Assembly (NCBI GenBank): GCA_964035545.1
Contig: OZ037768.1
Coordinates: 5,674,741-5,738,740 of the forward strand
Direction: 5' to 3'
Source: Bugula neritina
Lineage: Eukaryota; Animalia; Bryozoa
Length of the DNA: 64,000 nt
Shown here one piece after another: positions 20,201 through 54,944 of the stretch (positions are counted from its first letter, which is position 1; every line of letters starts with the position of its first letter). The translations under genes and the position numbers were made by a program. Below the pieces are notes generated by a model that ran no database searches, was not told where the DNA came from, and was given only the letters and a program-made list of their open reading frames with translations.

Positions 20201-23200
20201 GTAAACTGTTTTGTTATAGCTACAGAACTGTTTTTAACTACAAAAACTATTTATGCTGTAATAACTTAGTCATGGTGTATTTGAGTTGTGGCTCAATTTG
20301 CCCCAAACTGAATGGCTCAAATTACCCCAAGGTGCCATTCTGAAGAAAAGTCTTAATGCTGGAGTAAAAATTAAACGTAGGCTTTCCTTTTTAACATGTA
20401 ACTGTAGCTAGCATCATCCTAATAAAATGCAAAAACTTTGACGAGGTTTTCTCAATTTGGAGTAAAGCAATATAACTTGACATGCAGACTATCAAATTTA
20501 CGTTTTGTTAAACAAACAGGTAAATGTGAAATATTTTACTTACCATGCAGCTTAGAAATGATGAACAGGAAAAAATATGCCACATTTGTGAGTGTACCTG
20601 TGTACATAAAAAGACAATGCTGTATATTGAACAGTTTTTCTAAAATATGCCCTGGCTCAAATTGCCCCATGGCTCAAATTACCCCGGCTTCCCCTAATGA
20701 TTGTTAGATTTTTCATAGATTTCATTTATTAATTATGCATAGATTCATTATTGCCGATTAAATTTTATCATTTGGTTGGTGACCTTGGAGTAAAGACTAT
20801 AGGACATGTGTTACTACAAAATCTCTGAATACTGCTGATTACTAGTCAACACTGTGTATTAGTCATTGTCAGTATTGATACTGTGTAATGTAATTGTTGT
20901 TGTTGCTTACCCGCAATATTAACACATGTAGTGGTTGTATCCAGTTTGCAGGTCGTGCAGCTGATGGTGGTGCAGCTCTGCAGGTGCAGGACATGCCGCT
21001 GGATGTGATGGATGAGATGGACCCAGACGACGAGTTGGACTTAGCAGATGATGAAGACGACGAAGAATGGCACGATGAGATGGGAGACGAAGTAGGAGCC
21101 GGTGATAATCAGGGAGTTGATGGAGGCGATGCCGCAGCACAGCAAGCAGCTCAGCAGATCAACCAAGGTATCTTCTAATTCTCTTCTATATTCGTACAGT
21201 CAAAGCATTAAAATGTTCCCTTAATGTGTTTTCTTTGGTTCATGAAAATCAATGAAAGCATTTGGTGCATTTCATAAGTCATCAAACATTCGAAGTTACA
21301 CTGTTTTTGTGAATTTATTCTGGTTTAGAGAAGTGATGTTATAGACTCTGTGTTATAACCTGTCAGTTGAAGCACCTTTGGGATTAGGCCTTATCTTGTG
21401 CAATCCTTTTGGCTTAGAGCTGGTAACTGTAGTTAGTAATTTAATCTTATTTTATTAGATTTACCCATCTAAATTGATTGCAGCACATATCCTAAGGATT
21501 CTTGACACAATAAAGTTATCAAGTGTAGTAGATCTAACTGAGAAAAAAAACATTAAATAGAAGAGGTTAAAACATTAGAATAAACCTGTTTTCAGTTAAT
21601 CTACATGAAGCAAACAGCATTCTGTAAAATAATGATGGACTTATCTATTTCTATACCATTTTACTGAACTTGAAACTCTGCCCAACTGTATGAAGTCAGT
21701 TTTCTGATTTCATGGCATATGCTGCCTATGATTGGCTATACGTGTTCTATGTTGCAGCTAATTGGAATCCTATTGGCTGGGAGAGAGCGCCAGAGGAGCT
21801 GACGTGGGAACGACTCCTCGGCCTGGATGGTTCTTTAGTGTTTCTGGAGCATGTCTTCTGGGTCATCTCTCTCAACACTCTGTTTGTCCTGGTGTTTGGT
21901 AAGTAGTGATTGCAGCTTGTTTCTATGTATGCACAGTTTACCTCCCAACAACTGTGTTTCTGTATTTTCGTTTACTGGGTTTGTAGCTTTTTGTCCTTAT
22001 CACATTGGACAATGGACAGTGAGTGGACTCCGGTTGTCTAAATACGCAGAGGCATCAAAGTTTGAAGGAGTTCTCACCACCATGGTGGGCTACGTGGTGG
22101 TAGCCATGTGTCTCATGATACTCTACACTATAATGGCACTGGCCAGACTACACAAGTAAGTGTCCCTCTGCTTGCTGCTTTTATTATACTTGAAGTATTG
22201 AGCTAAGTTTGAGTGTTAATATGTTATTTTTTGGCATAATTAGACACTGTATGTTTTCAGACTTGCCTGTTATACGGTTACATTATACATCAGATGATGC
22301 TATGCTATCGTGTGATGTCATACTAACTTTCTGATTTCAGAGTACGAGTGTTCGTTGGTTTATCATACATTGTTGTGAAAGTCACCATACTGATTGTCGG
22401 AGAGATTGGACTGTTTCCTCTCGTGTGTGGCTGGTGGCTGGATCTCTGCAGCTTGGTAAACATACCTACTCTTGCCTTTTTCTTGCCTGCTAAAAACATC
22501 ATTAAAATAATTATTCACATTTTTTACTACGTAAAGTTGGATTGCTATATAGTACATTTGCACTTTCTCTAAATAGACTGTGCTACATTATGGTTTGTAT
22601 GATTTTAGCCGATGTTTAACGCCACTATACACACCAGAGGGGAAAGTTTCAACAAAGCACCTGGCACAGCCATGTTTGTTCATTGGCTCATAGGAATGGT
22701 TTACGTCTTCTACTTTGCCTCCTTCATTCTCTTACTTAGAGAGATATTCAGGCCTGGTGTACTCTGGTTCCTGAGGAATGTAAATGACCCAGAGTTTAAT
22801 CCTATACAAGAGGTAGTGTAGTCACTGCACAATATTTCCCACTAAAGTAAACTAAACTTCTTTTAATTGTATAATCTGTCAAAATCTCTTCTGTAGATGC
22901 GTATGGATATTATATATTAATAGTGTCACACATGGTGTTGTAGATGGTGCATATCGGTGTATACAGACATAGTCGTAGATTTATTCTCTCTATGCTAATA
23001 TTTGGCTCAACTGTAATGCTGATGCTATGGCTGCCTATTCGATTCATCAAGTACATGTTCCCAGGCTTCTTGCCATACCATGTGGCTTTGTCAAAGTGAG
23101 TCGCTGTTACATTGGACATAATCTAAAAGACATTTCAACAGTTTTAAACTCAAAAGTTTTTATCAATGACTGCAATTGAAGCCCCTCTGTTCCTTCTTAT

Positions 23201-26200
23201 TTTACCTTCTGTTTTGTTTAGAGTTAAATATTCAAATAAGATAACAGTAAGCTTCCCATACTGTATGTTACTATCAAACTCTTACAGCGATGCCCCAATC
23301 AGTGAGCTGTCGCTGGAACTACTGCTACTCCAAGTAGTGCTACCTTCACTCCTAGATCAAGGACACACAAGGACATGGTTTAAAAGTCTGGTGGTTTGTT
23401 GGACTCGTTGTGTTGCTAATCTATTGAACCTGAATTCTTACCTTCTGGGAAATGAAGATCTTGAAGATAAGGTTTGTGTGACGCTCCCATTTATTTTAAT
23501 TTAGTTTCCAACATTTTTAAACTTTGCTACAACCCCAAAGGCGCTTGAAATAAAAGCATAAATATATAAACAATGCTGTTTGTTTTTTTCCAGTGGAATT
23601 AATTTTAGTCTAAAGGAAAAAAAATTAAAATTTATCTCGAATGTGTTTGGAAATAGTCCAAAAATTTGGGCACCTGCTTTTCTACATTCAAATATTGTTC
23701 ATCATTTGTAACGAGCTCGTTATCAACCACACTACTTTCCATGTCACTGAATTTATGTTGTAAAGTGTTTCAATAAATTTGCATAAGTTTGATTTATATT
23801 TTGGCTTTCAAAATCTGTTATTTCAGCATCGGAATGAGACTATATCAATAATGTTTTAATTAAATTGATGATAGTCTGTAGTATATAACACTTTGTCATG
23901 TTCATTGTATTGAATCACTCTAGGAGAATATTATAAGAGTCGATAACGACCCAGTTCGAGTTGGGGTGCCGGCAGCTGCTGTTAATCCTGGGGGTCCTGT
24001 GGGAGAGGCACACCAGGCCTTGCTGAATATGCACGGATCTTCGGGCTTCAAGCCATACTATAGGCCAAAGTATTTTCATCTTCGTGTAAGTGTGAAACTC
24101 AGTAGTTTATTCATAGTTTGAAAGCCTTACCTGTGACTCCCAGGCTAAGCATCTCCAGTATTTGCTTACTTTACTATTACTCAATATGATATTTTTTCAC
24201 CTTGGACAGGTTTTAGCAGTCAAGTTTTGTAGTAGGAAATAATGAAAATGCTAAAAGTCCTGCCACAATAAGTTGTAATTTTGAAGCCATAGAAACCTAG
24301 ACTAGTGATGATGATTTCACATAAACATATTACATAATGTCAAGGTCGATCTAGAACAAAACCACAGTTATGCTTGAATTTCTCCAAGACAGCAACATTG
24401 ACTGGAATAGGCTTAAAGATGTTGCAGGTGACATCTTAGGTTTCCAGGTGATACCACACGTCCTCTCTCTCACTGTCAACTTTCTCATAGAAAAAGAACA
24501 ATATGACTGGTACAGTGATAATGTGAGAATCCCCTTTTGGGGTGTGTTATTCAAACGAATCAACACAGTGTTTGCGGTGCTCCACACTGGTATGGGATTA
24601 GCCTCATTTCTTGTATTCCAAAAGAACATTGGCTGGGTCAGTCCTGCGGTTCCCCTAGTACTGTGTGGAGTACAGGTCATTGCTGACTTTACATGGAGAC
24701 CTCTGTTTTTCAATCAGAAGAATTGGGATAGAGCGTTTCGTCACGGCACAGCTTGCACCCTGCTGTCCTCCGCACTCTGCTATCTCTATTACAAGATAGA
24801 CTGGTCAGCGGGGGTGTTGATGGTGCCATACTCGCTGTGGTGGTTTTACCTCACGTCTGTTGTCTGGTACATCAGACTGGCTAACGAACCACCCGAGCCA
24901 TGGAGAAGGTTGTCTTTTGGAGGGTTTGAAAGGGTTCGGCGCCCCACCGTGCCCACGGGTAGCGTCAGTGACTGACTAGGCTGGTATATTAATGAGCTGC
25001 CATATTACGCTCGCAGGGTCAGCCGTATTAGACGCTCTGTCGTGGACTCTGTTTATTCAGCATTAGAAGATGAAGATAACATAACGTGATGCAATACTCT
25101 GCGTATCCTGTGTGAACTGTTTTAGTTTTCTTGTAATTGAATAATAATAAAGCAAGTATAAACTTTTAGCGAGTGTCTATTGTTTACCTTCAGTAGTCTA
25201 CTGGTATATTTTACCTGATTAGTTGTGGTGCCGTCACTATACTGTAACAGTGTAACTTTGTTGCTGATATTTACTATATCTGCGTTGAGCCATGTTATGA
25301 TTGCTGAACAGCCGTATGACTGACATGTACTTCTTGTAGGTGTTCATCTTGTTGATGCTAATGTTCATAAGTCTATTCACTGCCAGCGTGATATCTCTAA
25401 TATTACCAGGTGAGCTTTACCTTACAGGTTAAAACTAATCCTGCGAGGTATTTTCTCCACCCTGAAACTTGCACCAATAGAGAAAATACTCGATAAACTT
25501 ATTGATTTTTTTCTGCTTTAGCTATGAAAGTGAAAATTATGTAACATTTCTATGTCACTGGAAATATGGAATAACAAATTACTATGAATATTTTAGTATT
25601 CATCGGCCGTAAGCTAATGGAGATTTGGATGCCCAAGACAAAGGTGCACGAGTTATACACTGCAGCTTCTGGACTTTATGTTTGCTGGCTGGCATTGAGA
25701 TCCATTGTAATTCTCTCCTCCTGGGTTACTTTGGGTTGGAACAGCCTCATGACCAAGTTTAAGAAGTGGGCTGTTATTGTAAGTACATCTGAATAATAAG
25801 TTGTAAGTACATCTGAATAATAAGTTGTAAGTACATCTGAATAATAAGTTGTAAGTACATCTGAATAATAAGTTGTAAGTACATCTGAATAATAAGTTGT
25901 AAGTACATCTGAATAATAAGTTGTAAGTACATCTGAATAATAAGTTGTAAGTACATCTGAATAATAAGTTGTAAGTACATCTGAATAATAAGTTGTAAGT
26001 ACATCTGAATAATAAGTTGTAAGTACATCTGAATAATAAGTTGTAAACTTGTACATCTGAATAATAAGTTGTAAGTACATCTGAATAATAAGTTGTAAGT
26101 ACATCTGAATAATAAGTTGTAAGTACATCTGAATAATAAGTTGTAAGTACATCTGAATAATAAGTTGTAAGTACATCTGAATAATAAGTTGTAAGTACAT

Positions 26201-29200
26201 CTGAATAATAAGTTGTAAACTTGTACATCTGAATAATAAGTTGTAAGTACATCTGAATAATAAGTTGTAAGTACATCTGAATAATAAGTTGTAAGTACAT
26301 CTGAATAATAAGTTGTAAGTACATCTGAATAATAAGTTGTAAACTTGTACATCTGAATAATAAGTTGTAAGTACATCTGAATAATAAGTTGTAAGTACAT
26401 CTGAATAATAAGTTGTAAACTTGTACATCTGAATAATAAGTTGTAAGTACATCTGAATAATAAGTTGTAAGTACATCTGAATAATAAGTTGTAAGTACAT
26501 CTGAATAATAAGTTGTAAGTACATCTGAATAATAAGTTGTAAGTACATCTGAATAATAAGTTGTAAGTACATCTGAATAATAAGTTGTAAACTTGTACAT
26601 CTGAATAATAAGTTGTAAGTACATCTGAATAATAAGTTGTAAGTACATCTGAATAATAAGTTGTAAGTACATCTGAATAATAAGTTGTAAGTACATCTGA
26701 ATAATAAGTTGTAAACTTGTACATCTGAATAATAAGTTGTAAGTACATCTGAATAATAAGTTGTAAGTACATCTGAATAATAAGTTGTAAGTACATCTGA
26801 ATAATAAGTTGTAAGTACGTCTGAATAATAAGTTGTAAGTACATCTGAATAATAAGTTGTAAGTACATCTGAATAATAAGTTGTAAGTACATCTGAATAA
26901 TAAGTTGTAAGTACATCTGAATAATAAGTTGTAAGTATGTCTGAATAATAAGTTGTAAGTACGTCTGAATAATAAGTTGTAAGTATGTCTGAATAATAAG
27001 TTGTAAGTACATCTGAATAATAAGTTGTAAGTACATCTGAATAATAAGTTGTAAGTACATCTGAATAATAAGTTGTAAGTACATCTGAATAATAAGTTGT
27101 AAGTACATCTGAATAATAAGTTGTAAGTACATCTGAATAATAAGTTGTAAGTACATCTGAATAATAAGTTGTAAGTACATCTGAATAATAAGTTGTAAGT
27201 ACATCTGAATAATAAGTTGTAAGTACATCTGAATAATAAGTTGTAAACTTGTACATCTGAATAATAAGTTGTAAACTTGTACATCTGAATAATAAGTTGT
27301 AAGTACATCTGAATAATAAGTTGTAAGTACATCTGAATAATAAGTTGTAAGTACATCTGAATAATAAGTTGTAAGTACATCTGAATAATAAGTTGTAAGT
27401 ACATCTGAATAATAAGTTGTAAGTACGTCTGAATAATAAGTTGTAAGTATGTCTGAATAATAAGTTGTAAGTACATCTGAATAATAAGTTGTAAGTACAT
27501 CTGAATAATAAGTTGTAAGTACATCTGAATAATAAGTTGTAAGTATGTAGGACTTACTGTGTCATATTAAATTGCTCAAATTGAACAGTGTCAAATATCT
27601 GAAAACTCACACTAACTCTATTAGATATATGTTCATATAATATTAATGCATTATATTATGTCGCATTCTGTTGCTATAACTTGCCTGTATCGACACAGTG
27701 GGCCAAGGTAGTTGTTGTGACTTTCCTACTGGTTGGAGTTGTGCCCCTACTTATCGGACTTCTCTTTGAGCAAATAGTAGTTGTGCCGTTGAGGGTGCCT
27801 TTACACCAGTCCCCTGTATTCTTTCCCTGGCAGGTAGGCCTAAGTCTTTGTTTCTTGATTTATATAATATCTATTAATAGCTTTATATTGCTAAACTCAG
27901 CATTTAGCACACGGAACATCCATTGCCATATTAGACTCTATATACTATGTTATGTAGCCTGTTGGCATTCTCATTTATATTTGAGTAAATTTCATTTTAT
28001 TTTTAATAAATTTACCATCAATATGTTGTTATCCCCCCATGACGTGATAGCTCGGCGTTGTAAAATGCCCTCACAATACTGCTTTGCTGTAGGACTGGGC
28101 TCTGGGCGTGCTGCACACTAAAATCCTCTGTGGTTTGACTATGATAGGACCTCAATGGTGGCTGAGGAGATACGTGGAGCGGGTGAGTCATACACTTACT
28201 CACCCTACGCAGTGTTTCAGTTTGGCTAAGTCTCCATTGTAGTTTAAATCTTTTGACTGTAACAATACATTAATCAAATCTTCATAACTTCCCAGTTTCA
28301 TGAATAAAAGAAGGAAGGCCACTTGAGCTGTCGGCTAGTGACACCTTCAGACACCTATGGCTGACAGATCATAATTTTTTGTCTCATTTTTGACAAGTAG
28401 TCTGTTTAGTTTTCACGTATAGTTATTATTTTAAGATTTATGTTCTCTCGTACAGTTGTATGAAAATGGAGTATGGAATCTGAATCTGAAGGAGGTGCTA
28501 ACCAATCTCTGTCTGCCTGTAATCCTTGTGCTCAGTCTAAATCTGGCTGTACCTTATGTGATAGCCATGTCTCTTGCCCCACTCTGTGGTAAGCCTCATT
28601 CTTCTGAATACTTATTTATGAAATAGTTAGGAATTTGGGTTCGGTGTGGATACGTCTTTGTTATCCTAAAAACTACACAGCTTTGCTTCTTGTCTTGCAA
28701 AATTTTTTTTTATACAAATCTGTAACCTTGCTAATGGTCTAGTTCGTACGTCTGTTGCTGCCGAATTTACACTCGTAGATGTGTATGTTTTAGGAGCTTC
28801 TCTGGAAACTCAGAATCTGATATATCGAAGAATCTATCCATCCGTATTCGCTTTCTTCTGCTTGCTTACTGGATTCCTTTTTAACTTCAAGCAGTTTAAA
28901 AAACTCTATGAACATATAAAAAATGACAAGTAAGTGGTTTGCCATTTACTCTTGATCAGTTCTACTGAATATTAAATTGTTTATTGAATATTTATCTGCA
29001 CTAGACATGGTAAACTTTAAAAATTTTAATTTAATCAGAGTAAACAGTGAGCTTCAAACTAGGAATTGGAATTTGAAATGTAAAAAACTGGTTGTGTGAT
29101 TACAATCTTAATTTATGTTTCCTTAAGACTTGAAGTTGGAATTTCAATTTGAATTTCTTTCGGCAATGTAGCTTAAGTGTAAATAATTTAAAGATTTTGT

Positions 29201-29634
29201 ATTTAACATAGGGAACAGAAATTAAATATAAAAACTTGTTGAAGAATTTGTAAATTAGTATAGATGTTATCATCTGTGAATCAAAATTGGAATTATTTAT
29301 TATCTAATCTATGAATTAATATTCTTATTAAACTTATTCATGAATTGGTTCATCAGCTAGAAATAAGCTTGTATCTATTGCAAATTTAAACTAAAATAAG
29401 GATTAACTATAAATTTATGAATTAAAATTAGACTGAGCTTGTTTTCATTCCTGAATTAGAATTATGATATAAAATATTGCCACAATTTAGTAGAATTAAG
29501 AACACTGAAAGCTTGTTTCTGCAGTATCAGCAGCTAAATCTGTATATCATTGCTATAGGTACCTTGTTGGGAAACAGCTGGTCAATTATGACCAACCAAA
29601 GACAAATACAGGTACGGCTTCTCAAGATGGCTGA
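17293..29634 (+). CDS. MARCHF6: E3 ubiquitin-protein ligase MARCHF6 (TEB4/Doa10 family), complete multi-exon gene
   Basis: ATG at 17293 (MAEFSGID). Spliced RING-CH domain [45 protein letters not shown]; [29 protein letters not shown]; GWWLDLCSL; [21 protein letters not shown]; C-terminus [15 protein letters not shown]...TGA at 29632-29634. AATAAA at 29651. Confidence 0.97.
19382..20694 (-). mobile_element. Internally deleted pogo/Tigger-like (Tc1/mariner superfamily) DNA transposon in a MARCHF6 intron
   Basis: Perfect 24-bp TIR GGGGAAGCCGGGGTAATTTGAGCC (19382-19405 and 20671-20694), flanked by TA on both sides. Minus-strand remnant PRKYTPK...[16 protein letters not shown]...[14 protein letters not shown] resembles a Psq/CENP-B helix-turn-helix. 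No DDE domain seen. Confidence 0.88.
24370..24975 (+). CDS. Divergent TspO/MBR (translocator protein TSPO-like) membrane protein; intronless, nested in MARCHF6 intron 24086-25339
   Basis: 201-aa ORF with TSPO-like motifs in the right order: [20 protein letters not shown] (cf. LYSAMGYGSYLVW), [21 protein letters not shown] (cf. VPLGLYTGQLALNWAWPPIFF), [12 protein letters not shown] and a CRAC-like VVWYIR. It has its own AATAAA at 25146. Confidence 0.85.
   Translation: MLEFLQDSNIDWNRLKDVAGDILGFQVIPHVLSLTVNFLIEKEQYDWYSDNVRIPFWGVLFKRINTVFAVLHTGMGLASFLVFQKNIGWVSPAVPLVLCGVQVIADFTWRPLFFNQKNWDRAFRHGTACTLLSSALCYLYYKIDWSAGVLMVPYSLWWFYLTSVVWYIRLANEPPEPWRRLSFGGFERVRRPTVPTGSVSD
25779..27548. repeat. 24-bp minisatellite GTAAGTACATCTGAATAATAAGTT, 72 units (64 of 24 bp, 8 of 28 bp) plus a partial unit
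   Basis: Directly visible tandem array; the 28-bp variants (GTAAACTTGTAC...) start at 26043, 26215, 26339, 26415, 26587, 26711, 27243 and 27271. Confidence 0.98.
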
Positions 29635-30462
29635 ATGTCTTTTACAGCCAAATAAAAGAAGTTTTGTTAATTTTGAAGTTGTCAAGTTTACTCAATGTTA
29701 AATATATATTTTCAGAGCAATATAATATGTATTTATTGTAAAGCTACAGAATTACGTCCTCTAAACTAATAAATTCGCTTATATAGAAGATTTAAATGCA
29801 AACGGTTGTGGTTACACTTTCAAGTCCTATTAAAATGTATGCCAGTATCTCATGGACTTAGTTCCACAAACTGTTGGAGTAGAACTACACATTTACTTGA
29901 CACATTCACTGATTGGTTACGTACAATGACTCTTTTTAGATTCATTTGAATCAAAATGTCAGGATGCAATCTTGAAAAGACTTAATCATATTTTAAATCT
30001 GAGTAGATCAGGACAGACATTATTTTTTGACATTTTTGGTGATATTGTGGAAAATCTTAGTGTAGATGGGGAAAGAAGAGTTACCAGGCGCTTTGTAGGA
30101 CAGAATGCACACATTATCTGAATGGAATGTGTCATTAGTGGAAATGGTGTCATTTCAGATAACGCTTCCCTGTTAGACGCTAGTAGCGTAATCAGGACAT
30201 CATTACAAATACCAAAAATAAAGTAACTATAAGCTACAAACATATTATACAAAATAGTTTTTTTCATTAAGAGCAAGTTCATGTTGTTTTAAATGTAGGG
30301 AGTACATAAAGTTGTGCAATTCATGATAATATAGGCAGATTATTACTGGACTTTCAAACCTCTTTCACCATTCAACATGTCTGAGTGCTATCTATCTTCT
30401 AGATGAACCCAACAACTACGTCACTGAGTAAATATTGGTCTACTTGACAGCTAATGTCATAC

Positions 30463-30767
30463 TGTTATAGTTTTCAGATTTAGGGTTGATGTGTCACCAA
30501 GAGAGTCTATTTAACACTAGAGAAACTTCACCAGTTAAGTCGAGTAGATATCGTTATATTTAATGCAAGAATACATAATAAAAATCCAATGTACAACAGT
30601 AATGATACACACGTCTATTTAGTTTACAGCACTATCCTCAACTGAGCTAGTAGCGCGAAGCGGCTACTATTACTTATAAAACAGCCTAGCTAATTGGCTA
30701 ATACATTGTTCCGGGTCAATACGCAACCTTGCGTATTGTGTTGCTGGTAGCTCCACGAGCCACCACA
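30463..30767 (-). repeat. 3' LTR
   Basis: Direct repeat of 37605-37909; no mismatch found on reading. Confidence 0.97.
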
Positions 30768-30778
30768 CTGCCCCCTCC
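30768..30778 (-). other. Polypurine tract
   Basis: GGAGGGGGCAG on the minus strand, abutting the 3' LTR. Confidence 0.85.
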
Positions 30779-31034
30779 AGCAGAAAGCCCACTTTCTGAT
30801 AAAATAAACTCACATAAAAAAAACGTATACTTCGGGGGGGTAAGAGAACAGTATAAAAGTATATACAAAAAAACAACAACTGATAAAAAAAATATACAGG
30901 TATATATAACGTGCACACTAAGTAATAAGCAAGAGAGGGTCCTATCTACATGTAGAGTACGTGCCACCATTACGGTAGGGAATGCCACAGAGAGGTAGGG
31001 GAATGAGTAGTATGGAGTTGTAGGTAGATTCGAG

Positions 31035-32108
31035 TTAACTGCGGGCCGCACGCTTCATGCGTTTAATAGACTCCTGTAAGTATTTGAGTTCACTGGATGC
31101 TGCCTGTACCCGTGGGGCCAGCCTGTACACTTCTTGCTCCAAGTCATGCGCCCTAGCTTCTACCTCACGTAGGTTACGGGCCCAGGGGGACGAGCGAGAG
31201 GAAGTTGGTTGCCTGTGTCGTTTCCGCTCTGAGGATGGAAGAGGAGGAGGGAGTGTATACGCATTTGTGTCTACTCTCTGTAGTACGACACGAGGAAAGG
31301 TATGCGGCATGCGTATAGGACTGTGAGGTGGAGAGTTAGCAGACTGTGTAGGTTTATCTGCGGCTCCAGAGATGATGGGTCGCGGGGAAGGGAAGCCTTG
31401 CTCCAGGCGAGATAGCCGAGCTGAGTCAGTGATGAGTGGTTTGATGGCGTTGAGAAAAGCAGGATAGGATGATTCGTCTACTTCATAGACATGCCCTTGA
31501 TAACACTGCATAGTACGTTGGTGCCGCAACAGGTAGTCACGATTGTAGCTATATTCTCCGCAAGGGCAGAAAGTGGTGATGTAGTGTTGCGGCAAGTGTA
31601 CTTTTAGTCTGCGGTGGGTCGTGAATCGCTGTTGGCAGAGGTTGCATTCACGATTACCCTCACCTCCTTGATGGGTCCTGATCTCTCTCTCTGTGGCAGG
31701 GGTAATCCAGTTGGAGGTTGCTTCCAACTGGGGTGGCAGTTTCCTGGTGGTAGAAGTTGTTGGGGCCGGCTCTGAGTCCCACGCCATCTCTAGAGAAGGC
31801 ATGCCCGGAGAGACGGGCGCGAGTGTGTCTACAAAAGTAGAATTAGTGTTAGATCGCGGTGGATCTTTACAACCTAATTCTAGTGACTGTCGACCGTTGC
31901 TAGTCTGAGAGTCACTGCTTTTGGAATGCACTCGAGGAACTGATGAATCATGTGTGGACTGACCAAGAACAGTGTCTAGCTCCAGGTCTAACAGACCATC
32001 GGCCATTACAGTGTCTTCATCGTCATTCACATGAAACGTGGTTCCCAGTAATTCTGATTCAATCTGCTGAATTAGTTCAGAATCTACTGGCATCGAGCCC
32101 GTTTCCAT
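31035..32108 (-). CDS. Retrotransposon extra ORF (ORF3): 357-aa protein with C2H2 and C2HC zinc fingers and a C-terminal coiled coil
   Basis: Uninterrupted ATG-initiated ORF between pol and the PPT. CNLC-x12-H-x3-H is followed by CPC-x12-H-x5-C and a heptad pattern near the C-terminus. No signal peptide or TM segment visible. Confidence 0.85.
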   Translation of the reverse strand: METGSMPVDSELIQQIESELLGTTFHVNDDEDTVMADGLLDLELDTVLGQSTHDSSVPRVHSKSSDSQTSNGRQSLELGCKDPPRSNTNSTFVDTLAPVSPGMPSLEMAWDSEPAPTTSTTRKLPPQLEATSNWITPATEREIRTHQGGEGNRECNLCQQRFTTHRRLKVHLPQHYITTFCPCGEYSYNRDYLLRHQRTMQCYQGHVYEVDESSYPAFLNAIKPLITDSARLSRLEQGFPSPRPIISGAADKPTQSANSPPHSPIRMPHTFPRVVLQRVDTNAYTLPPPLPSSERKRHRQPTSSRSSPWARNLREVEARAHDLEQEVYRLAPRVQAASSELKYLQESIKRMKRAARS

Positions 32109-32125
32109 GAATAGGAATACAAGAC

Positions 32126-35100
32126 TTATACTGGCTTACCTGGGAACTCGGTATTAATGTCCATACTCAACGTTCTTGGTAAGGTTGGAGCTGGTTGTGA
32201 GATACGTCTGCCTTTGGCGATGTCAGCATAAGAAAAGGCTGAGCATCGTTTCTGAGGCACGAGGTCGGAACTATTTGCTTTACGCGCATTAATTCCTCCC
32301 ACTATTCCGCCCTCGCAAAAGTTGATATTTGCGTGGGGTTCACAACTCCAACATTTTTCCGTACGGTTTTCCCCTAGACTTTCATATGCGCCGCTTCTAA
32401 TGCAGTCACATACGAAGTCTTTCAAATACGGTGGGGGTTTCCTCGTACGCTGTCCCCTCTCTCGGGGGGTGACACACTTGCCGGTTCGTTAGTAGGGGCC
32501 TCTAATGGCGTCTCTACTTCACCGTTAGTGGTCACCTCTTCTTGTTCTCCGGATGGAGCCCCTCCCTCCGTGGGGGTTTGCACTTCCGGAACCGGCTCGG
32601 TTTCTGGAAGTGATGGAATTAGACTTGGCGGTGGCGGACACGCTTCTGTTGACAAAAGCTGCCGCTCCTCTCTCACCAAGTTTTCCTCCCGCGGTATGAC
32701 CACTTCGTATTCAGGTCCATGCCGCCGTCGCCCGCGCGTCGTTGTCTGCCTCCTGGGCTCTAACAACGGGGGGGGCTTCTCCCACTCCGTCAGGGCTAGC
32801 CCAATACGGTTTCAAGCGAGACTCATTTTGGATAGACACCTGTCCTGAGCGCTCAATCTTGTACGTATGATTGGGCATAGCCTCGACGACCACGTAGGGG
32901 CCTACGAACTTAGGCTTCAGCTTATCAGCCTGTCCGCGGCGCCTACGGTAATTGACCATCCACACCTTATCTCCTCTTTGATAGAGGGGTGGTTCATCGG
33001 AATCTTCGTGCCGCACCTTCCACTGCTGTTGGCGCAGTATCTCGTGTGCGGCCTTCATCCGTTCCACTAGTTCACTGGCATACTCATGGACTGAGTTATC
33101 CTGCTCTGGAACGTGATAGGTGAGATGGTCAGGGACACGAGTCTCTCTCCCGAGCATCAAGAGGTTTGGGGTCTCACCAGTACTGGTGTGTGGGGTGCTA
33201 CGGTATGCACGCATGACTTGCGGCAACACCGTATCCCATTCCTCTTGACCTCGTCCAAGGAGGAGACTCCGGAGCGCATCACCTAGCATCCGGTTGTTGC
33301 GCTCCACCACCCCGTTACCTTGAGGGTGGTAGGGGGTGGTCCTGCTCTGATTTACTCCCCAGAGGTGGCAAAGGTCGCTCATCAGTTGAGACTGGAATTG
33401 AGCGCCTTGATCAGAGTGTATCTGTTCGGGAAGGCCAAAATAACAGAATACATGTTGGTCTAGTGCCCTGGCCACTGTTGGGGCTGATGCATCTGGGATA
33501 GCCAGAGCATCCGCCCACCTAGTAAAGTGGTCGGTTAGTACTAAGATCCAATTATTGCCTCTGGGGGTCAGGGGCATGGGTCCGACCAGGTCTACAGCGA
33601 CCACTTGCCAGGGCCTACCAGCATATAGCCTCCGCCGTCCTGCTTCACCAGGGGGGCGGCTATGCTTACTGGCCTGGCAGATCTCACACTGTTTGACTCT
33701 GAGCCGGACGTCACGCTCCATCTGCGGCCAATACCACCGGAGTCGTAATTTAGATATCACTCGCTTGACCCCTGCGTGAGCCTGCTTGTGAGTATCCCAA
33801 ATCAACTCACGGCGGATGGCTGTGGGGCAGACTACCCTCTTCCTTTCCGGGTGTCTGCCGCTGGCAGCTAGCGAGATGGTTAGCAACCCATCCTGCCCGA
33901 TCCGCAGCGAGTCCCAACGCTGACAGTATAGCCGGAACTCGGCGCATCCCTGTCGTATGCGTTCCTCGCTGGGTCGTCGCCCTTCCCTTTTGGCCCGGTA
34001 GATGTCTGCCACGACTCCCGGCAGCTCTTCTTGGAGCTTCTTCAGCTCTCGAACATTACCGGCCAGTACAGGGTTGGCGCGGAGGTTTTGTACATCCTCC
34101 GGGGACTCATCAACTCTTTGCCTGAGTTGACCTTGATCCCAGTCAAATGGTGCTCCGTGATGAGCCAGCGTCTCCAACTCGCATCATGGGGGACCTCCAT
34201 CCCTCCTCTCGATGTTGAGACACTGTTTGCAACCTCCGTCAGGTCGGCGACTCAACCCATCCGCATTGCTGTGTCTCTTGCCCGGTCGGTGTTCGATCCG
34301 GTACGAGAATTCAGCTAGGATTTCGAGCCACCGGGCGACCTGACTGGAGGGCTCTGCTCTCCTGCACAACCAGATCAGCGAGGCATGATCCGTACGCAGC
34401 CGGAACTTCCTGCCATATAGGTATGGTCGGAAGTGCTTCACTGACTTGATTACTGCCAGCAGCTCCTTGCGGGTAGTGCAGTAATTCCGTTCAGCGGGAG
34501 AGAGAGACTTGCTGTAGTAGGCTACTACTACTTCTCGGCCTTCCTGCACTTGCGACAGCACAGCGCCAACATTCTGGTCACTGGCGTCTGTGTCTAGGAT
34601 GTACTCCAGAGTGGGGTCTGGGTAGGCCAAGATGGGCGCCGTTAGGAGGCAGCCCTTGAGGCGGTCGAACGCTTCTTGTTCGACTGGAGTCCACTGCCAC
34701 GTCACTCCCTTTGCGGTAAGCCGGTTTAACGGCTGGGCTATGCCCGCAAAGTCTGGTATGTATTGCCTGTAATACCCTACCAGCCCCAAGAAAGCCCGGA
34801 GTCCGGTCAAGTCTTGGGGGGTGACCCAGTCTTCTACTGCCCGTACCTTTTCGGGATCCGTTGCCACGCCGTTTCGACCGACAACGTGCCCCAGGTACTT
34901 GACCTCCGGCTGCAACAGAGCGCACTTGGAAGGTTTGAGCTTAAGACCGGCACCTCGGAGTCTCTCGAAAACCTCCTGCAGACGACTGACATGTGTCTCG
35001 AAGTCTGGAGAGATTACGATGACATCATCGAGGTAGACCAGCAGTGTCTTCCAATGGAGTCCGCTAAGGACTTGTTCCATCAGCCTCTGGAAGGTGGCTG

Positions 35101-36755
35101 GGGCGGAGGTTAACCCGAAGGGCAGCACCTTCCACTTCCACAAACCGTCCCGTGTGATAAACGCCGCTTTCTCCTGGGCGTCGGGACTCAGAGGAACCTG
35201 CCAATAGCCGCTTAGCAAGTCTAACGTACTGAAGTACTTGCTGCCGGCTAGGGCGTCCAATGACTCGTCAATACGAGGTAGAGGGTAGGCGTCCTGTATG
35301 GTTACGCTATTGAGTTTGCGGTAGTCCACACAGAACCGCCAACTGCCGTCTTTCTTCCGGACCAGTACGACTGGCGAGCTCCACGCACTATGGGCGGGCT
35401 CTATCAGTCCCCGGTCCAGAAGATCCCGTACTTGTCGGCTAACCTCCTTCTCTTTCTCCGGCCCCAGCCTGCGCGTGGGCTGCCGGACAGGGGCTGTCCC
35501 TGCAGTCAGCGGTATTTCGTGTCTGACAATTCCAGTCAGTCCCACGTCATTCTCCCCGCTGCTGAACACATCACCGTAGTCGCGTAGTAACTTGGCCATA
35601 GCTTGGCGTTCTCTGTTACTCGCGCAGCCGCCACTGGCTGTTTCGTATAACTCCCGGAGATGTGTCGGGACTGCCCCTCGTCCCTGAATAGGGTGTCGAG
35701 GGGGTGCCTCCGTCGCGTCACCCAGCGACGGGCCCACGTCCTCTTCCTGGACGGAATGGAACCGGCCCAGCATTGACCCAGCTGGGAGCTCAATGGGCTC
35801 GGTAAAGGGGTTGACGCACTGCACTAAGACCTCCCCTCGCTCAGTTAGTCGGTTTAAACTACTGGCGAGTTGGATCTTTTCATGTGCGCTTTCAACGACC
35901 CCGAGCCTGGCTATCCGGTTGCTGTTCACTCGGCAGTGGATAGTAGCTCTGGAGCGTCCGGGTACGGTGCAGTTCCGAACTACCTGAACACCGCCCACCA
36001 GAGGACGCCCAAACTTATCCACACAGGCGAGTTCTCGCCCGCCCATCAGCACCACCGACTTACTAAAATCTATTCGGCACTGGTGTTGCTTCAAGAAGGG
36101 CATGCCGAGGATAGCATCTTCCTCCAGTTGACCTATGATAAAGGTCTCCTGTACAGCCTGATCTCGGACACGCCCAGGGAGCTCGATAATACCATAAAAG
36201 GGGATACATGACCCGTCTGCCAGGGTGCCATGTTCTCCAGTATACGGTCGTACTCTATCCCTGTCCCGGCGGGGCAGTGCCTCAAAGACCCTACGGCTGA
36301 GAAGGTTGGTAGTACAACCGGAGTCGAGCAGGAAAGTGACGGCGTTGCCGGCCACCTTTCCAGGTAGGAAGTAGCTCTCTCCATGTGGTTGTACTTTCAC
36401 CCCCCCCCCCCGCATGTGCTGTCCTGGTTGGACAGGACGGCGGGGGTTCCACCCGTGGTTTACGGGGCTTCCGGCGGCGAGGTTGGTGCCGGCGGGGTTT
36501 GGGCCTCTCCACTGGGCCTTCTGGCTCCATTTCAGTGGCGGGCTCCTCCTCCCGAGGTAACCGGTGAAACCGGTTAGCGAGTGGCAGGGAAAAGGTACTG
36601 GGCCGTTGTGCGGGCCTACTAGTCCTGCGTGGTACCTGCCACTCGGGTAGAATGTTCCGCCGGGTCCGTACGGACAGACGACGGCGTGTTCCACCATACT
36701 CCTTTAGTTGCGGCCCGCGGGGAGGGAGAGCGTCCGCGGGCCGTGACAGTTTAAC
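32126..36755 (-). pseudogene. Gypsy pol (protease, RT, RNase H, integrase), interrupted in this sequence
   Basis: FLLDSGC protease; WRFCVDYRKLN and YLDD RT; DTDAS and TDHASL RNase H; H-x4-H...C-x2-C, VDLVGP, SDQGAQF and GVVERNNR integrase; KPKFVGPY; terminal QRTRKPPPYLKDFV. There is an in-frame TGA at 34184-34186 and there are frame changes at homopolymers 36400-36411, 32768-32775 and 32464-32469. Confidence 0.9.
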
Positions 36756-37570
36756 GCCCCCTGGTATTGGGGTCGTCCTTTCTGTCCCTGGTCCTGATCA
36801 GCGCTACTCCAGCCTTGCCCCACAGGTGTTGGGGGCATCCGCAAGGCCTGACCGGGGCCAGCACCGGCCAGAATGGTCACCAATTGTCCCAGCATCTCTA
36901 CCATACGGTCCACTTCGGCTTCCAGCGGGAGGGCTTCGGAGCTTGTCGTAGCCCGAGCAGCGCTGACTCCAACTACTGGTGGGTTCCGTTGTGCTCGATG
37001 CATTTGGGTAGCCAACAGGTAAGCTTCTCCAGCCTCCAGGGCATCCTCTATTCTGGTTATCCCTTTAGCTCGTAGGTGATGGTCTAGGCCCAGGTCGTTT
37101 AGGGACTGGACAAAGGCGTCATAGGTGTAACGCTCTTGGTGTTGTGCTGGCAGATCGCTATATGCAATCTGCGCCAGCTTCTTCACCGTCGCGGCATGTT
37201 CTTGTAGCGAGGTCCGCGGGGTGCGGCACAATCTCTCCAGCTTGGTCCTGGCGTCTATGACGGAGGTGCCAAAACGGGCCCGCAGCGCAGCCAGTATGCC
37301 GTCTACGTCCGTTCCCACTCCGTACGGCTTGGCTTGCTCCGTCACCGCCCTCCGCAATTTGATAAGGGCCACTCTATGCGGCCATTGAGCAACTTCCATT
37401 ACCTCTCTAAATTCTTGTATAAATTGTTCGACATCTTCCGACCCAGTAAAGGTGGGAGCTTTCAAGCAATGTCTATAAGCTTCTTCTCCTTCACGATTCA
37501 CAGGATTAACAGCATTTCTACGCTCACCTTCTACTGGGGGTGGTTGCATTCTAGCATGTTCGGTCTCCAT
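36704..37570 (-). CDS. Gypsy gag
   Basis: ORF directly after the PBS with capsid-like LKAPTFTGSEDVEQFIQEF...LRARFG...SLQEHA...LAQIAY; no CCHC knuckle seen. Confidence 0.88.
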   Translation of the reverse strand: METEHARMQPPPVEGERRNAVNPVNREGEEAYRHCLKAPTFTGSEDVEQFIQEFREVMEVAQWPHRVALIKLRRAVTEQAKPYGVGTDVDGILAALRARFGTSVIDARTKLERLCRTPRTSLQEHAATVKKLAQIAYSDLPAQHQERYTYDAFVQSLNDLGLDHHLRAKGITRIEDALEAGEAYLLATQMHRAQRNPPVVGVSAARATTSSEALPLEAEVDRMVEMLGQLVTILAGAGPGQALRMPPTPVGQGWSSADQDQGQKGRPQYQGALNCHGPRTLSLPAGRN

Positions 37571-37585
37571 CTTTGATATACACAA

Positions 37586-37603
37586 ATCCCACCGCTGCCA
37601 CCA
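37586..37603 (-). other. Primer binding site complementary to tRNA-Leu
   Basis: TGGTGGCAGCGGTGGGAT, 1 nt after the 5' LTR; complementary to the 3' end ATCCCACCGCTGCCA-CCA of tRNA-Leu(AAG/TAG type). Confidence 0.9.
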
Positions 37604-37604
37604 C

Positions 37605-37909
37605 TGTTATAGTTTTCAGATTTAGGGTTGATGTGTCACCAAGAGAGTCTATTTAACACTAGAGAAACTTCACCAGTTAAGTCGAGTAGATATCGTTATA
37701 TTTAATGCAAGAATACATAATAAAAATCCAATGTACAACAGTAATGATACACACGTCTATTTAGTTTACAGCACTATCCTCAACTGAGCTAGTAGCGCGA
37801 AGCGGCTACTATTACTTATAAAACAGCCTAGCTAATTGGCTAATACATTGTTCCGGGTCAATACGCAACCTTGCGTATTGTGTTGCTGGTAGCTCCACGA
37901 GCCACCACA
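37605..37909 (-). repeat. 5' LTR
   Basis: Direct repeat of 30463-30767; minus-strand TTATAAG (TATA-like) and ATTAAA (polyA-like) inside. Confidence 0.97.
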
Positions 37910-39174
37910 ATACAATGTTATTCTCATCTATCTCCACTTTGTCCTGTTTGGGTAGCGGGATGTTTTACAGTGTTATGAACAAAGTTTAATCATTTCAGAT
38001 ACAGCCTGCAGAAATAATCTTTCATATAATTTTTTTTATCCAATTCAAACAATAATAAGCAAGATAAATGGTGAAATCTACACACAGATATAAAATAATA
38101 ATGTAAACTTTGATCAACCTTTAACCGACTTCTAACTGGGGGTCGTCTAACTGAAATTTGGTCGCCTGACTGAAAGTCGTCTATCTGGAATGACACCCAC
38201 CATATAAGTACTCCGCTACAAGTGCAGTATAGGATATCACTAGACTATCAGCATGCTTGCCTTAATTCATTAGTGTCAAAAATATACACTGTTTCTTATC
38301 TTGATGCTCATGGGTTAGCGGTTAAAGAACATCCTGGCATATACATGCATAATTTAGTTATCAAGCATTAGTGAAGTCAAAAAATTTGTTGACAAAAATA
38401 ATTGAATTTGCAATTAAAGTAAGGATGATTAACATGTTAACAGCATAGCTTGAGGTGAAGTCTAAAACCCACCTACTTGCACTTGCGATAGTTGCCAAGT
38501 TTCTACCTATACTAATGCCACACAAGCTGTTGGGCAGGCAAGATGTGTGTGTGTAAGTGCGTGTGTGTGTTTATTTCATCATAGACATTTACACTGATTA
38601 TAAAATAGATGAAAAAAGAAACGACAATAATTATCAAAAGAAAGTGTAGGTAACAAGGAAAAAAATTATTTTGAAGATGATGATGGGGCCCATTGCGAAA
38701 AAGGCAAAGCCAGCAAGAACGCGAGCCCGAGTCAATAGTGCATCATACAAATTAATGAACAAATCAAATGTTCACTCTGTAGAGATGAGGTGCTGTCTCA
38801 GCTCTCCCTTAAAATTACCTAAACAGGGTATCATTCTCATGTTAATTGTTTGTTACTAAAATTTGAATTGAAAAAAGTAAAATAGCTGCAAATAATTGCT
38901 GTTGTTGTTTGTAACTGGCATTACATCCTTGCTATCAGAGTTTTTGCACAATGATGACAATAAAAACTAGTTATATACTTTCTAAAGTTATCTGTACTGT
39001 TTTCAGTTAGGCTTGTTGCTTTATTGATAAAATTAATTTATCTGTTTGGTACTAATATAAAATTATGATTCAAAAGGAATATCATAGAAAAATTTCAAAA
39101 CAAAATATACCAAAGCAGTGACATCATAATAATCAAACTGGCAAAGTGTGAGAATTAATTTCAAGTCTTCAGCA

Positions 39175-42100
39175 TCAGACTGTAGTTGTTGCGGCACATT
39201 CAGCAGTGATGTCATTTCCTTTAGATGGCTTAGAAGCATCTGTTGGCGGGAAATAACGAGTCTCGAGATGCTGTAAACGCAGATTAATGTTTTGGGTTAA
39301 TAGACATCGCACCAACATTATGAGGAGCATTGAAAAACTGCAATATAATTTATCAGAAGTTATGCTTGTAATATTTACATTTGCAGCAGAGAAAAAAATG
39401 TGATCTGATGTGTCAAAAAACTATAATTATATTCAGTGAGCTGCTTTGTTGGTTCAATTGCTTACAGGATCCTTAGCTAGCAAACTATCTTCAGCTGAAT
39501 CTTTACACACTCAGCATAAAACTCTCTTGTTAACTATTTATTTTAAAGAGTGTCTTTGTTGTAACAGCACTCACCCCATTGACCTTCTCTCCAGCCATGT
39601 TTTCACAACTATCAAACTGCATGTAACTGTGATAAGATTTCTCCAATTCTCTAATTCGTTCTTCAGTCCATTGACCAGTTGATGTTATATTTTCAAAGTC
39701 CTCATTAATGTTTCCACTTTCAACAGCAGAGAAAAATTATTGGAAATACATAACAAGAAAGAAGTGAAATTAAACACAATTTACTAAAGCTAATTGTGTT
39801 GAGTTGAAGCAATTAAAGTGATGCTCGCTTTGCTTTATTTAGAAAAATAGAAAAGTAATTATGCAATTTAGAGAAGTTTGAATTTATAAAACACCTCACT
39901 GTTTTATAAAATTATCATATTAGTTTACAAGTAAAATTAGCAGCTATATTGATATTATAGGGAGATATACAATGAACACCAGTGTACGTTACTGCTGGGC
40001 AGAAGAGATGAAAAATTTAAGTGCTTGATATGCTTGAATTTGGACTCAAAATATCTTTTGAGAATACTTTCCTGCCAACTTCTCATTATCTAATCTAAAT
40101 AGTATGAGTATTTGAAACAAACTTAACATCACACATATGCTCATTTCAAATTTTATCTAACAAAATAACAAATTCTTGAAATCCCAATCAGTAGTCCTTG
40201 GAAATATTTAAAACTAAATGATCATGCATTTCCACATATGTGATTAAATTGTTATAAAATTTAAGCATAAAATTTTAATGAATACAATGAAACTCTAATA
40301 CGCTATCATTATAAGCTACAACTCTGACTCAATTTCTACTAACTTACTTAATCATTAAACATACTGGGACTTACTCAGGGATTGTAGTTGGGTATTTCAA
40401 ATTCTCATTAAAGAATTGTCGGGATATTTTAGGGTCTGCCCAGGCTGGTGCTGTGAAGCATTCAGCTATTTCTTGAGCAGGATAGTAGAACAAGAAATTG
40501 ATGCACATCTCGAAACTAGATGGCGAACCACCCTAAAATAAATATTCAAACAACATGATAAAACTATTTTTAAACCAATAGTTAATATTCAAATAACTGT
40601 CCATCACCCTCAGTCTTTAACACAGAATTGCGCTAAGTGAAACACTGCAAGCTACAACAAAATAGGTATATAAATGCAGAGAGAACTTATGGCTGAAAAG
40701 ATAGCGGTGTTTCAACTTTTACATACTAATTATTTAAATTGATGCTCCCCACCCATCGCCCTTTGTAAAACCCCTTTTGTGATATTGAAGAAATTTTATG
40801 GTGCCGGCTGCAGATGAGAATTGTATCATAGCATAGCCTTTGTTACAACTAAGAGATCAATGAACATAGTTACTTACATAAGTCATACCAGTTCTTCCTT
40901 CAGTATTATAATTACATGTAACCATGAAGTCATCTCCCTACAAGGTATAGTGAATATGCATATTTTCATGTAGCATTTCAATGTGCATTGCATAGCAAGC
41001 TTTATATGCACCTTTATTAGGTTGGCAAATTGATAATAAACCTACAATCACTCTTACTACTCTGTAGTGTACTGGCACTTACTGGAAGCACCTCAATAGG
41101 TTTTTCGAACATCTTCACTTGTTGATAGTTGAAGTCATAGTGTCCATCTCTATCTATGATTCCTATCTCTGTACCATTTCGAAAATGTCTGGCAGTAATT
41201 TGTCGTGCAGCAAAATGTCCATGTCAAGAACTACCAAATATTTTTATTTTTTCTTTCAGCAACTGTTTGAAAATATCAAAACGAGGCTCAGCACAAATTA
41301 TACATGTTTGTAATAGTTGATGAGATGGACAATTTTATTACATGGGATTTATTAGTTATATTTATTATATGTACAACATACACTATTAGTACAGCTTCCA
41401 GCACAATAGCCTGTGTAATCAAAGCTCTTGAGTTGGGGTGGAACAGCAATACCTGGTATTCCTCCTGCACTAATAATTCCAGCATCATACTTTCTCAGAG
41501 TTTTGGTGAGAGTCAACCTTAACCCTGACATCATAAACATATTTTTCATCACAAGACAGCGAACATGATATTGCAAGTCATTGTTGAGCAGTTGCAATAG
41601 AGATTTTAAAGTTTTAAGACTAGTTAAAAATCACCAATATAGTGTGATAGATGTACCAGAGCTGTCTACTTTTCCAGCAACAAGCTGTTGGTTGTCATAA
41701 TGAATTTCTAATAAATAGTAGTCTGCAGGAGCATCGGCGTGTCCTAGAGGATATCCAGCTTCCGCAGGATAATAAGTAGTCTAAAACAACCCGCACACAG
41801 GTCTATGTTTTAAAGAGTATGGGTAATAATAACAAGAGACTCATACATGCCTATGTAGTGAGTGCACAAGGGTATGACAAGTCTATTTTTATAACTGTGT
41901 GCGATATGTAAATAACAGTATAAAGAAGTTCGTACCCCACCACCAATGGACCAGACATTAATTAGAGCTTTGCATGTCTCCAAGTCCTGAGGCATGTTAG
42001 CATTGTAACACTCAAAGGAAGTGTTTCTGGTTTCAAAGTAGTGACTTCTGTTCACGTTGTCGAAACATCCATAAAGATCCATGTGGTGCACAGTTCCAAG

Positions 42101-43379
42101 GTTTTCCTTTTGAATCAGTGGTTCAACCTATAAATATTTAACGGAATCCAGGTTTGACTAAAGTTATAAAAATATAAAATATAAAACAGTAAAAACAACA
42201 ATCATTTTCATCAATTTATATTAGGATGTTTCTGTATAAAACGGTTTCTTAATAGCATTGAAGGAAAGTATCAATAATACATTTTTGAATATTGATCTTT
42301 TATAATATAATATAATTTCTAATAAAAGAAAATCATATGTTTTATATTGATTTTCTGATCGTACTTTTATCAAGTGATGTTTCCCATTCAACTTGGGAGC
42401 CCTTTTTATCTCACACAAATACCGGGTGTGGAATGCGGGAATCTGGGCCTGCAATCAAAAAATTGATTATTAAAACAATATGCCATAAAATATATACCAA
42501 CAATAATAAATTTCAACATTGACTATATTTTAGAATTATATATTCCATTATAATTCGTTATATATTATATTATATTATAGAATGATACTTTATCAACTGT
42601 GATGTCAAAAGTAAAAGCGTCATCTGGTATGTCATGTTCTACAGAGATTTTCCTTCTCAGGTAAATACTTCTGGTACCTCTGTTGGATGCAGTATGATAT
42701 GATACTGTATCACTACCGTCTGCTGAGATGGCATAAATTACTCTCAGTGTGTCCGTCTGAAAACCAAACATAGCTTTATAAATATTGTTGCTTCTTATTT
42801 TCAACTTGTAGGCATAAAGTGTCCTGTTTATCACTAAATGATTTGTGAAAACAAAATGTCAAAAATTACCCCAATAGACATGTCCTTCTCATCACATGTA
42901 TTGTGCTTTCTGGTGAACTTTATTGTTGTTACTCCATTTTCTTGAGATCCTTCCAGAAGTTCTACATCCTGAGAATCGTCCATTTTAGGATATCCGTTTC
43001 TCTCTGCATATCTATCCTGTAATACACCAAACCATAGCTCATTATATAAAAGAGTTGAATTATATAATGTTAATTACACGTGATGTTATTGCAAATGTTA
43101 TATTACAACACTACCCACCTGTAAATATGGTTTACCATCAGCAAACCCTGCAGTAATGATATCAGCTCCAGCCATTCCACCATTAGGACTGAATCCTATT
43201 CCAAACCATCCTGTAGTTTTAACTTTAGCAGTGATAGTTATGTTGGTGTCAGAATACTGCCACTCTATATGGAATCTCTCCTTTGGATCTAAATATGCTG
43301 ACTGTGATAAGTCAGTGTCAGCAGAGAGGGCACAACCCCATATGGAGAGTAACACTAGTGTTAGTGTAGCAGGCGACAT
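39175..43379 (-). pseudogene. MOXD1/DBH-like copper type II monooxygenase copy A; intact except for one in-frame TGA
   Basis: Signal peptide MSPATLTLVLLSIWGCALS, DOMON (GWFGIGFSPNGGMAGAD), VHHM, EIHYDN, HGH and EMC copper ligands, with canonical splice sites. TGA at 41224-41226 where copy B has TTA. Confidence 0.8.
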
Positions 43380-43569
43380 TATGCTTCCTAAAAAAAGTCA
43401 TTCTTTTATATTCTAAAAACATCATCAGCTTAAACATTTAAATTAAGTGTAAATTATAATAATTAGTGCCAATCACAAACGAAATAAATGAAGCATTCTA
43501 AATACTAAACTTGTATAGCTAAATTATGATGTGCTTTCATCAGGTGCGAATTCTGTTTTAAAGGAACAT

Positions 43570-43728
43570 AATAAGTATTGAAATATTTTATGTTGTTCAT
43601 TTGTTGGCAAATACCTAAATTTTAGATAAAATTTACAGGATTGCAAATTTACAAAATAAGTATTGAAATATTTTATGTTGTTCATTTGTTGGCAAATACT
43701 TAAATTTTAGATAAAATTTACAGGATTA
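43570..43728. repeat. Local tandem duplication, period about 86 bp
   Basis: ataagtattgaaatattttatgttgttcatttgttggcaaatac...ttacaggatt occurs twice. Confidence 0.85.

Positions 43729-54885: not shown

Positions 54886-54944
<59 letters not shown>

Follow-up and report, generated by a model that had tools for sequence, protein, structure and literature searches.

In the bryozoan Bugula neritina, a Ty3/Gypsy retrotransposon carries a third open reading frame (ORF3; 357 aa; positions 31035-32108, minus strand) between its integrase and its 3' LTR, and we consider it very probable (about 0.9) that this frame is a conserved accessory gene, distinct from env, that is carried as cargo by a Gypsy lineage. 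All positions refer to the window, the whole 64,000-nucleotide stretch of contig OZ037768.1 that was analysed. The cargo status of ORF3 rests on three independent lines, namely contigs that bridge the junction between pol and ORF3, the 3' position of a distant homolog in a related element (contig L015), and pol-tail motifs found in frame with the conserved core. The original prediction of a non-env, conserved and element-borne ORF is upheld by these lines, together with the retention of the zinc ligands among homologs.

The element is 7.45 kb long and lies on the minus strand (30463-37909). Its two LTRs (5' LTR, 37605-37909; 3' LTR, 30463-30767) are identical, each 305 bp long with TG...CA ends, and a 4-bp target-site duplication, ATAC, flanks them (30459-30462 on the plus strand, with the second copy at 37910-37913). 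The primer-binding site (37586-37603, minus strand), which we take to be of the tRNA-Leu type, is an 18-mer identical to that of contig L015, and a purine-rich tract (30768-30780, minus strand) adjoins the 3' LTR. The gag-like ORF (36704-37570, minus strand) has no Pfam match; compared with the gag of L015, which bears a CCHC motif, it is 41% identical across 149 aa. The pol gene (32126-36797, minus strand) is in pieces and comprises protease, reverse transcriptase (RT), RNase H, integrase, an SH3-like domain and a tail motif; its Pfam domain order, protease-RT-RNase H-integrase, is that of Ty3/Gypsy, and among solved structures the RT is closest to Ty3 (E 1e-99 vs 1e-36 to 1e-38 for MLV and foamy virus). 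The element is young and multi-copy.

Breaks in pol near 36400, 32768 and 32460 coincide with C12, G8 and G6 runs, two of which vary in length among contigs of other copies, and a stop at 34184-34186 interrupts the gene further. The contrast between an intact ORF3 and a broken pol, which had been noted previously, is real but weak as an argument for selection, given that three breaks coincide with G/C homopolymer runs of a type absent from ORF3 and that the LTRs are identical. The ORF3 ATG lies 17 nt past a stop codon (32126-32128) and in a different frame from it. This spacing and frame agree with the original prediction, but that codon can be called the end of pol only if the breaks are read through. 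Further, the frame of the roughly 100 codons past the RxRKPPxYLKDF motif is not constant relative to ORF3 in the relatives P0064, P0117 and P0121. For both reasons, the apparent pol end should be regarded as uncertain.

The element inserted about 830 nt past the stop codon of a MARCHF6-like gene. In run X5, two contigs read from one flank into the other through an empty site (30459/37911), which shows that organism A of the run table does not carry the insertion in fixed form. Run X1 covers the entire element; in X5, part of ORF3 and part of gag have no coverage, a hole that in itself proves nothing; a presence/absence difference between samples X5 and X1 is possible. The last exons of the MARCHF6-like E3 ligase gene span about 22300-29637 (plus strand), and an uninterrupted TspO/MBR (TSPO-like) frame is nested between them on the same strand (24355-24975). 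Within an intron of the same gene (about 25790-27545), a satellite of 24-nt units, with 28-nt variants scattered among them, fills about 1.75 kb. On the other side of the element, tandem copies of a gene with DOMON and copper monooxygenase domains (MOXD1/DBH-like) occupy about 39000-57500 (minus strand), spaced 6.2-7.4 kb from one another and with 85-97% similarity across the blocks that match, and a 48-nt tandem repeat with at least about 13 overlapping copies lies at 55694-56557.

Contigs from other data sets place ORF3 beside pol repeatedly. In run X1, 757 contigs map to 30930-32560 and span four identity bands, and the junction between the pol tail and ORF3 is bridged by at least four contigs from X1, X4 and X6 (two studies) at about 84-92% identity. 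When summed, contig depth across ORF3 exceeds flank depth by a factor in the hundreds, a figure that is not a copy number. A search with the finger-motif pattern returned 50 loci, 49 of which were judged by HMM to be chance matches; the single true homolog, on contig L015 (HMM E 1e-27), is 35% identical to ORF3 over 94 aa of the core and belongs to an ORF of 726 codons whose 5' end lies off the contig. The stop of this ORF precedes a purine tract by about 30 nt, and a 719-bp LTR-like stretch with TG...CA ends follows. Beyond it are the same 18-base primer site, a CCHC gag (41% identity) and a protease (65% over 40 aa). Whether these parts come from elements in tandem array or from a collapsed repeat, the homolog occupies the 3'-terminal position of a related element, although the contig stops short of pol upstream of the ORF. 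The junction-bridging contigs from three runs and the L015 homolog show that ORF3 is not confined to this copy, and its membership of a conserved family with the same 3' position in L015 speaks against a recently captured host exon; these were two of the outcomes that would have counted against the original prediction. In L015 the gag and pol frames overlap (600-678, minus strand), with a GGGAAAC-type heptamer near the end of gag, presumably a slippery-site pattern, which suggests that this element may use a -1 frameshift between gag and pol.

A pol-tail-like motif lies upstream and in frame in three of 186 core-bearing proteins (shuffle mean 0.05; none of 300 shuffles reached three), a motif that was picked post hoc, after those proteins had been seen, and the gene calls concerned derive from fragments short of the integrase core. 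The pol-tail frame of the window itself is matched by P0184 (E 9e-4), P0091 (E 1e-7) and P0121 (E 5e-4). When the 1.36-kb stretch from pol to the LTR was shuffled 5000 times with its dinucleotide composition preserved, no reading frame of 357 codons or more arose (maximum 240). Sequence variants in ORF3 were synonymous in nine of 20 cases vs 5.8 expected, an excess that is not significant (P 0.09); the comparison is blind to double-hit codons and uses 20 variants from the 40 listed among 177 over the mapped stretch. At the RNA level, the evidence is confined to four low-depth contigs in a single metatranscriptome that also covers gag and pol. No convincing splice acceptor for ORF3 expression was found in the element.

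Translation of 31035-32108 (minus strand) recovers the intact 357-aa frame with every motif that had been quoted for it. Residues 1-50 (31959-32108, minus strand) are acidic, with 13 D/E and no K/R; this segment is 62% identical to those of eight full-length homologs and cannot be aligned with distant ones. The conserved core (residues 121-245; 31374-31748, minus strand) contains a C2H2 finger and a C-x-C-x12-H-x5-C finger. A basic patch, ERKRHR, precedes a C-terminal heptad helix (residues 308-357; 31038-31187, minus strand) in which all 13 a/d positions are hydrophobic. The claim that ORF3 has neither a signal peptide nor a transmembrane (TM) helix is borne out: no TM helix or signal-peptide-like core is present, with hydropathy maxima of 0.58 (19 residues) and 0.68 (nine residues, at the N-terminus), and 16 homologs likewise have no hydrophobic segment (hydropathy at most 0.96).

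Finger 1 (residues 155-175) has the pattern C-x2-C-x12-H-x3-H with the F and L of the finger core, and a hydrophobic residue occupies helix position +6 in the finger geometry. Classical tandem C2H2 proteins connect their first finger to a second C2H2 finger through a TGEKP-type linker of seven residues. In ORF3 the linker is YITTF, five residues long, the second finger begins with C-x-C and the last ligand is variable, which rules out a classical tandem pair; both finger motifs are present, but not as a pair of that kind. Pfam returned only a sub-threshold zf-C2H2 match for ORF3 (15.6 bits vs a cut-off of 25.2). A BED-finger reading was dropped because zf-BED matched neither ORF3 nor 50 homologs, whose cores also fitted no other Pfam family beyond weak or generic zinc-finger matches.

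The homolog family is broad. Among 2113 candidates, 57 are homologs at 35-73% identity, and nine of these cover at least 98% of the query; a search of cluster representatives gave 217 at E up to 0.001 (the best 150 of which were listed), and the poly-zinc-finger matches P0135, P0142, P0156 and P0186 were left out of the family evidence as generic. The zinc ligands C155, C158, H171, H175, C181, C183 and H196 are each kept in 58-62 of 62 hand-picked homologs, whereas the eighth, C202, is a cysteine in 32 of 62. Basic residues are also retained, R/K at two positions of the finger-1 helix (53/62 and 40/62) and R190 in 47/62. The eight full-length homologs are most alike in the fingers (81% identity); the acidic start follows at 62%, the heptad at 51% and a linker region at 24%. 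The acidic N-terminus is not conserved among distant homologs; the C-terminal heptad occurs in 29 of 43 longer homologs vs 7.6 in shuffles, and 34 of 41 N-terminally aligned homologs share the start Met. A search for homologs of 451-2000 aa returned none, which says little, as homologs of such length are otherwise known. In the ESM Atlas, ORF3 matched unnamed clusters and C2H2 clusters at 0.91-0.95, and the sole match of the L015 core was DUF3435 at 0.78, within chance. Scans of viral and metagenome contigs with ORF3 alignments revealed no relative, and integrase patterns were absent from the viral contigs.

Species names were available for four of 30 clusters looked up, all of them bryozoan gene models. 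Homologs of the core include XP_067940963/4 and XP_067944745 in Watersipora subatra and KAF6040922 and KAF6040923 in B. neritina, where two genes of the family bear consecutive locus tags. P0200, P0208 and P0088, which comprise bryozoan gene models and a single unnamed protein, each carry the core domain twice, and the two-copy bryozoan gene models are possibly a domesticated family. The deepest split of the core tree has element-linked sequences on both sides and bryozoan gene models between them; a tree holding the element-linked homologs together against the gene-annotated ones was not rejected (AU test, p-AU 0.15), so that the tree is compatible with capture as well as with domestication.

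In the AlphaFold prediction, residues 121-240 form a single compact domain, about 120 residues long, that encloses both fingers (pLDDT 95.5, pTM 0.86), and residues 308-356 form one long helix. Among solved structures, the finger pair is closest to the DNA-bound pairs of Kaiso, ZBTB38 and SALL4 (Z 3.3-3.5, rmsd 2.7-3.0, 51-57 residues). These proteins share the C2H2 pattern of finger 1, and the predicted pair superimposes on theirs at about 3 A; unlike theirs, it forms part of a larger domain that has additional helices and a strand. Foldseek with the core found nothing at E 0.001, all structural Z values were under 4, and the full model retrieved generic coiled coils only, a missing fold match that is no proof of a new fold. 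From profiles and the predicted model, the core is best described as an unnamed zinc-finger domain family with neither a Pfam family nor a fold match.

The LTR contains a candidate binding site, a perfect U3 palindrome of 10+10 bp with a 2-nt spacer (30717-30738; 5' LTR copy, 37859-37880) upstream of a TATA-like site (P 0.002). Similarly, the L015 LTR has four palindromes of 7-10 bp upstream of its TATA-like site, a number reached in none of 500 shuffles. The palindromes were searched for after the fact, they differ in sequence between the two LTRs, and the flanks hold five palindromes with arms of at least 10 bp in 45 kb; they could instead serve host factors or form hairpins in RNA. An RNA structure ahead of ORF3 was also considered (z -4.7) and rejected as not distinctive, since overlapping 200-nt windows gave just -1.2 and -1.0 and 10 of 59 windows across the element fall below z -3. 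The pol region (33000-36000, minus strand) folds more stably than shuffles in many windows, and the mean z of the element is -1.5.

From its sequence features, ORF3 is likely to be a nuclear nucleic-acid-binding regulator of the element. The specific mechanism that we put forward, with rather less than even confidence, is that an ORF3 dimer binds the DNA of its own LTR and activates transcription. ORF3 would be translated separately from its own conserved Met, via a spliced or internally started RNA; the basic patch would bring it into the nucleus, the heptad would mediate dimerization, the two-zinc-finger domain would bind the U3 palindromes, and the acidic N-terminus would switch on LTR transcription. 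LTR DNA is favoured as the target because the acidic start, basic finger helices and dimerizing heptad fit an activator, and because the LTRs contain palindromes. Weak structural scores, non-classical fingers and an acidic start limited to near homologs count against a DNA-binding activator, as do the non-significant synonymous excess among variants and the sparse RNA contigs.

Non-classical zinc fingers often bind RNA, a property that would suit a different role, in which ORF3 oligomerizes on unspliced genomic RNA and aids its nuclear export or stability as Rev and the CERV protein of Cer1 do. We consider this role improbable, though still the strongest of the competing explanations. CERV is the sole experimentally studied Gypsy ORF at this position, and it serves genomic RNA export rather than transcription (PMC10309623); the same export problem would arise if ORF3 came from a spliced RNA. 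No link to CERV in sequence or family emerged among the matches of ORF3, CERV is reported to have no homologs beyond nematodes, and the RNA structure upstream of ORF3 did not stand out from other element windows. A somewhat less probable role is that of an integration tether, a chromodomain-like module steering integrase that is fused to pol in some elements and separate in others. The core lies in frame behind a pol-tail motif in three distant homologs and three closer ones have upstream extensions like the pol-tail frame, but the in-frame gene calls derive from fragments that end short of the integrase core, 34 of 41 close homologs have their own Met, and a stop and a frame change part ORF3 from pol here, so that in this element no reader domain continues the integrase C-terminus in frame. 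A free oligomer would also agree better with the coiled coil at the C-terminus and with the long disordered arms.

Comparably improbable is an anti-silencing or host-manipulating factor that acts through protein contacts, as a dominant-negative coiled coil or a decoy for a host zinc-finger repressor. The W. subatra and B. neritina gene models with one or two domain copies, some with a C-terminal heptad, make hetero-oligomers with ORF3 conceivable, but these candidate partners may be host genes, domesticated copies or annotated elements. Passive cargo, in which host exons were captured once or repeatedly and are of no use to the element, is quite unlikely. The interleaving of annotated bryozoan genes with element-linked sequences in the core tree and the site-level variant test (P 0.09) would be compatible with it, whereas neutral cargo would not be expected to keep full-length frames open at 49-73% identity, with conservation that differs by region, or to hold its 3' position in L015 at 35% core identity. 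Position alone would suggest a divergent envelope or fusion protein, which is hardly credible given the missing hydrophobic segment in ORF3 and 16 homologs and the lack of any Pfam env family or viral fold match; no F-type or gB-type fusion family or fold is among the matches listed (Pfam, BFVD and PDB).

Other LTR retrotransposons carry third ORFs that are not env. The original prediction treated ORF3 as unusual Gypsy cargo and overlooked these precedents, above all Cer1 CERV of Caenorhabditis elegans, which PMC10309623 describes as a 517-aa spliced product that shares exons with gag, has a C4-type Cys finger, a leucine zipper, a basic NLS and a G-protein-like domain, is required for genomic RNA export but not for transcription, and is limited to nematodes. 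CERV and ORF3 are alike in layout, by analogy only, as non-env ORFs at the env position with a finger, a zipper and a basic patch; they differ in that ORF3 pairs a C2H2 with a C2HC finger, starts at a conserved Met of its own and ends in a heptad repeat, and no G-protein-like fold is among its fold matches listed. In bdelloid LTR retrotransposons, third ORFs after pol are likewise family-specific and non-env, and encode GDSL esterases, DEDDy exonucleases, and proteins with TM segments or coiled coils; zinc is nowhere mentioned in the main text of that report (PMC5408684). The plant aORF-3S/3R are conserved, lie between pol and the 3' LTR, are in some cases nuclear and have been proposed as regulatory, but, as far as that main text goes, the sense ones are env-like with TM segments, the nuclear ones are antisense, and the word finger is absent (PMC7264820). 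Bryozoan errantiviruses have a gB-type env in gag-env-pol order, and insect errantiviruses place env after pol (PMC13524379), the position that ORF3 takes here; ORF3 in contrast lacks a signal peptide and TM segment, and no fusion fold is among its matches listed. With respect to these precedents (CERV, bdelloids and plants), ORF3 adds a further type to the known non-env third ORFs.

Foamy virus Tas/Bel1 and HTLV-1 HBZ are 3'-encoded nuclear LTR regulators with acidic, basic and coiled-coil parts. Both belong to Retroviridae, lack C2H2 fingers and have no homology to ORF3 that was found; the comparison is one of analogy. The available portions of PMC6238403, PMC13326412, PMC8220671 and PMC2774666 describe no zinc-finger ORF3, and the bryozoan paper among them reports that repeat libraries are scarce for bryozoans. 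Full-text literature searches turned up no description of the ORF3 family, and prior annotation in Repbase, GyDB or supplements is possible.

LTR retrotransposons are generally thought to depend on host transcription factors, and the few accessory genes that have been studied act in RNA export, at membranes or in nucleic-acid processing. The fullest scenario, in which an old animal Gypsy lineage has its own sequence-specific, dimeric zinc-finger transcription factor of an undescribed family, binds it to LTR palindromes as a retrotransposon analog of foamy virus Tas and has seeded domesticated bryozoan genes, is a speculative one that we judge unlikely as a whole. If a self-encoded LTR-binding factor is indeed present, it would provide a retrotransposon with a feedback switch as in complex retroviruses. 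The ORF3 core would be a new zinc-binding domain common to elements and bryozoan gene models, and it may represent a possible route by which zinc-finger regulators move between transposons and their hosts.
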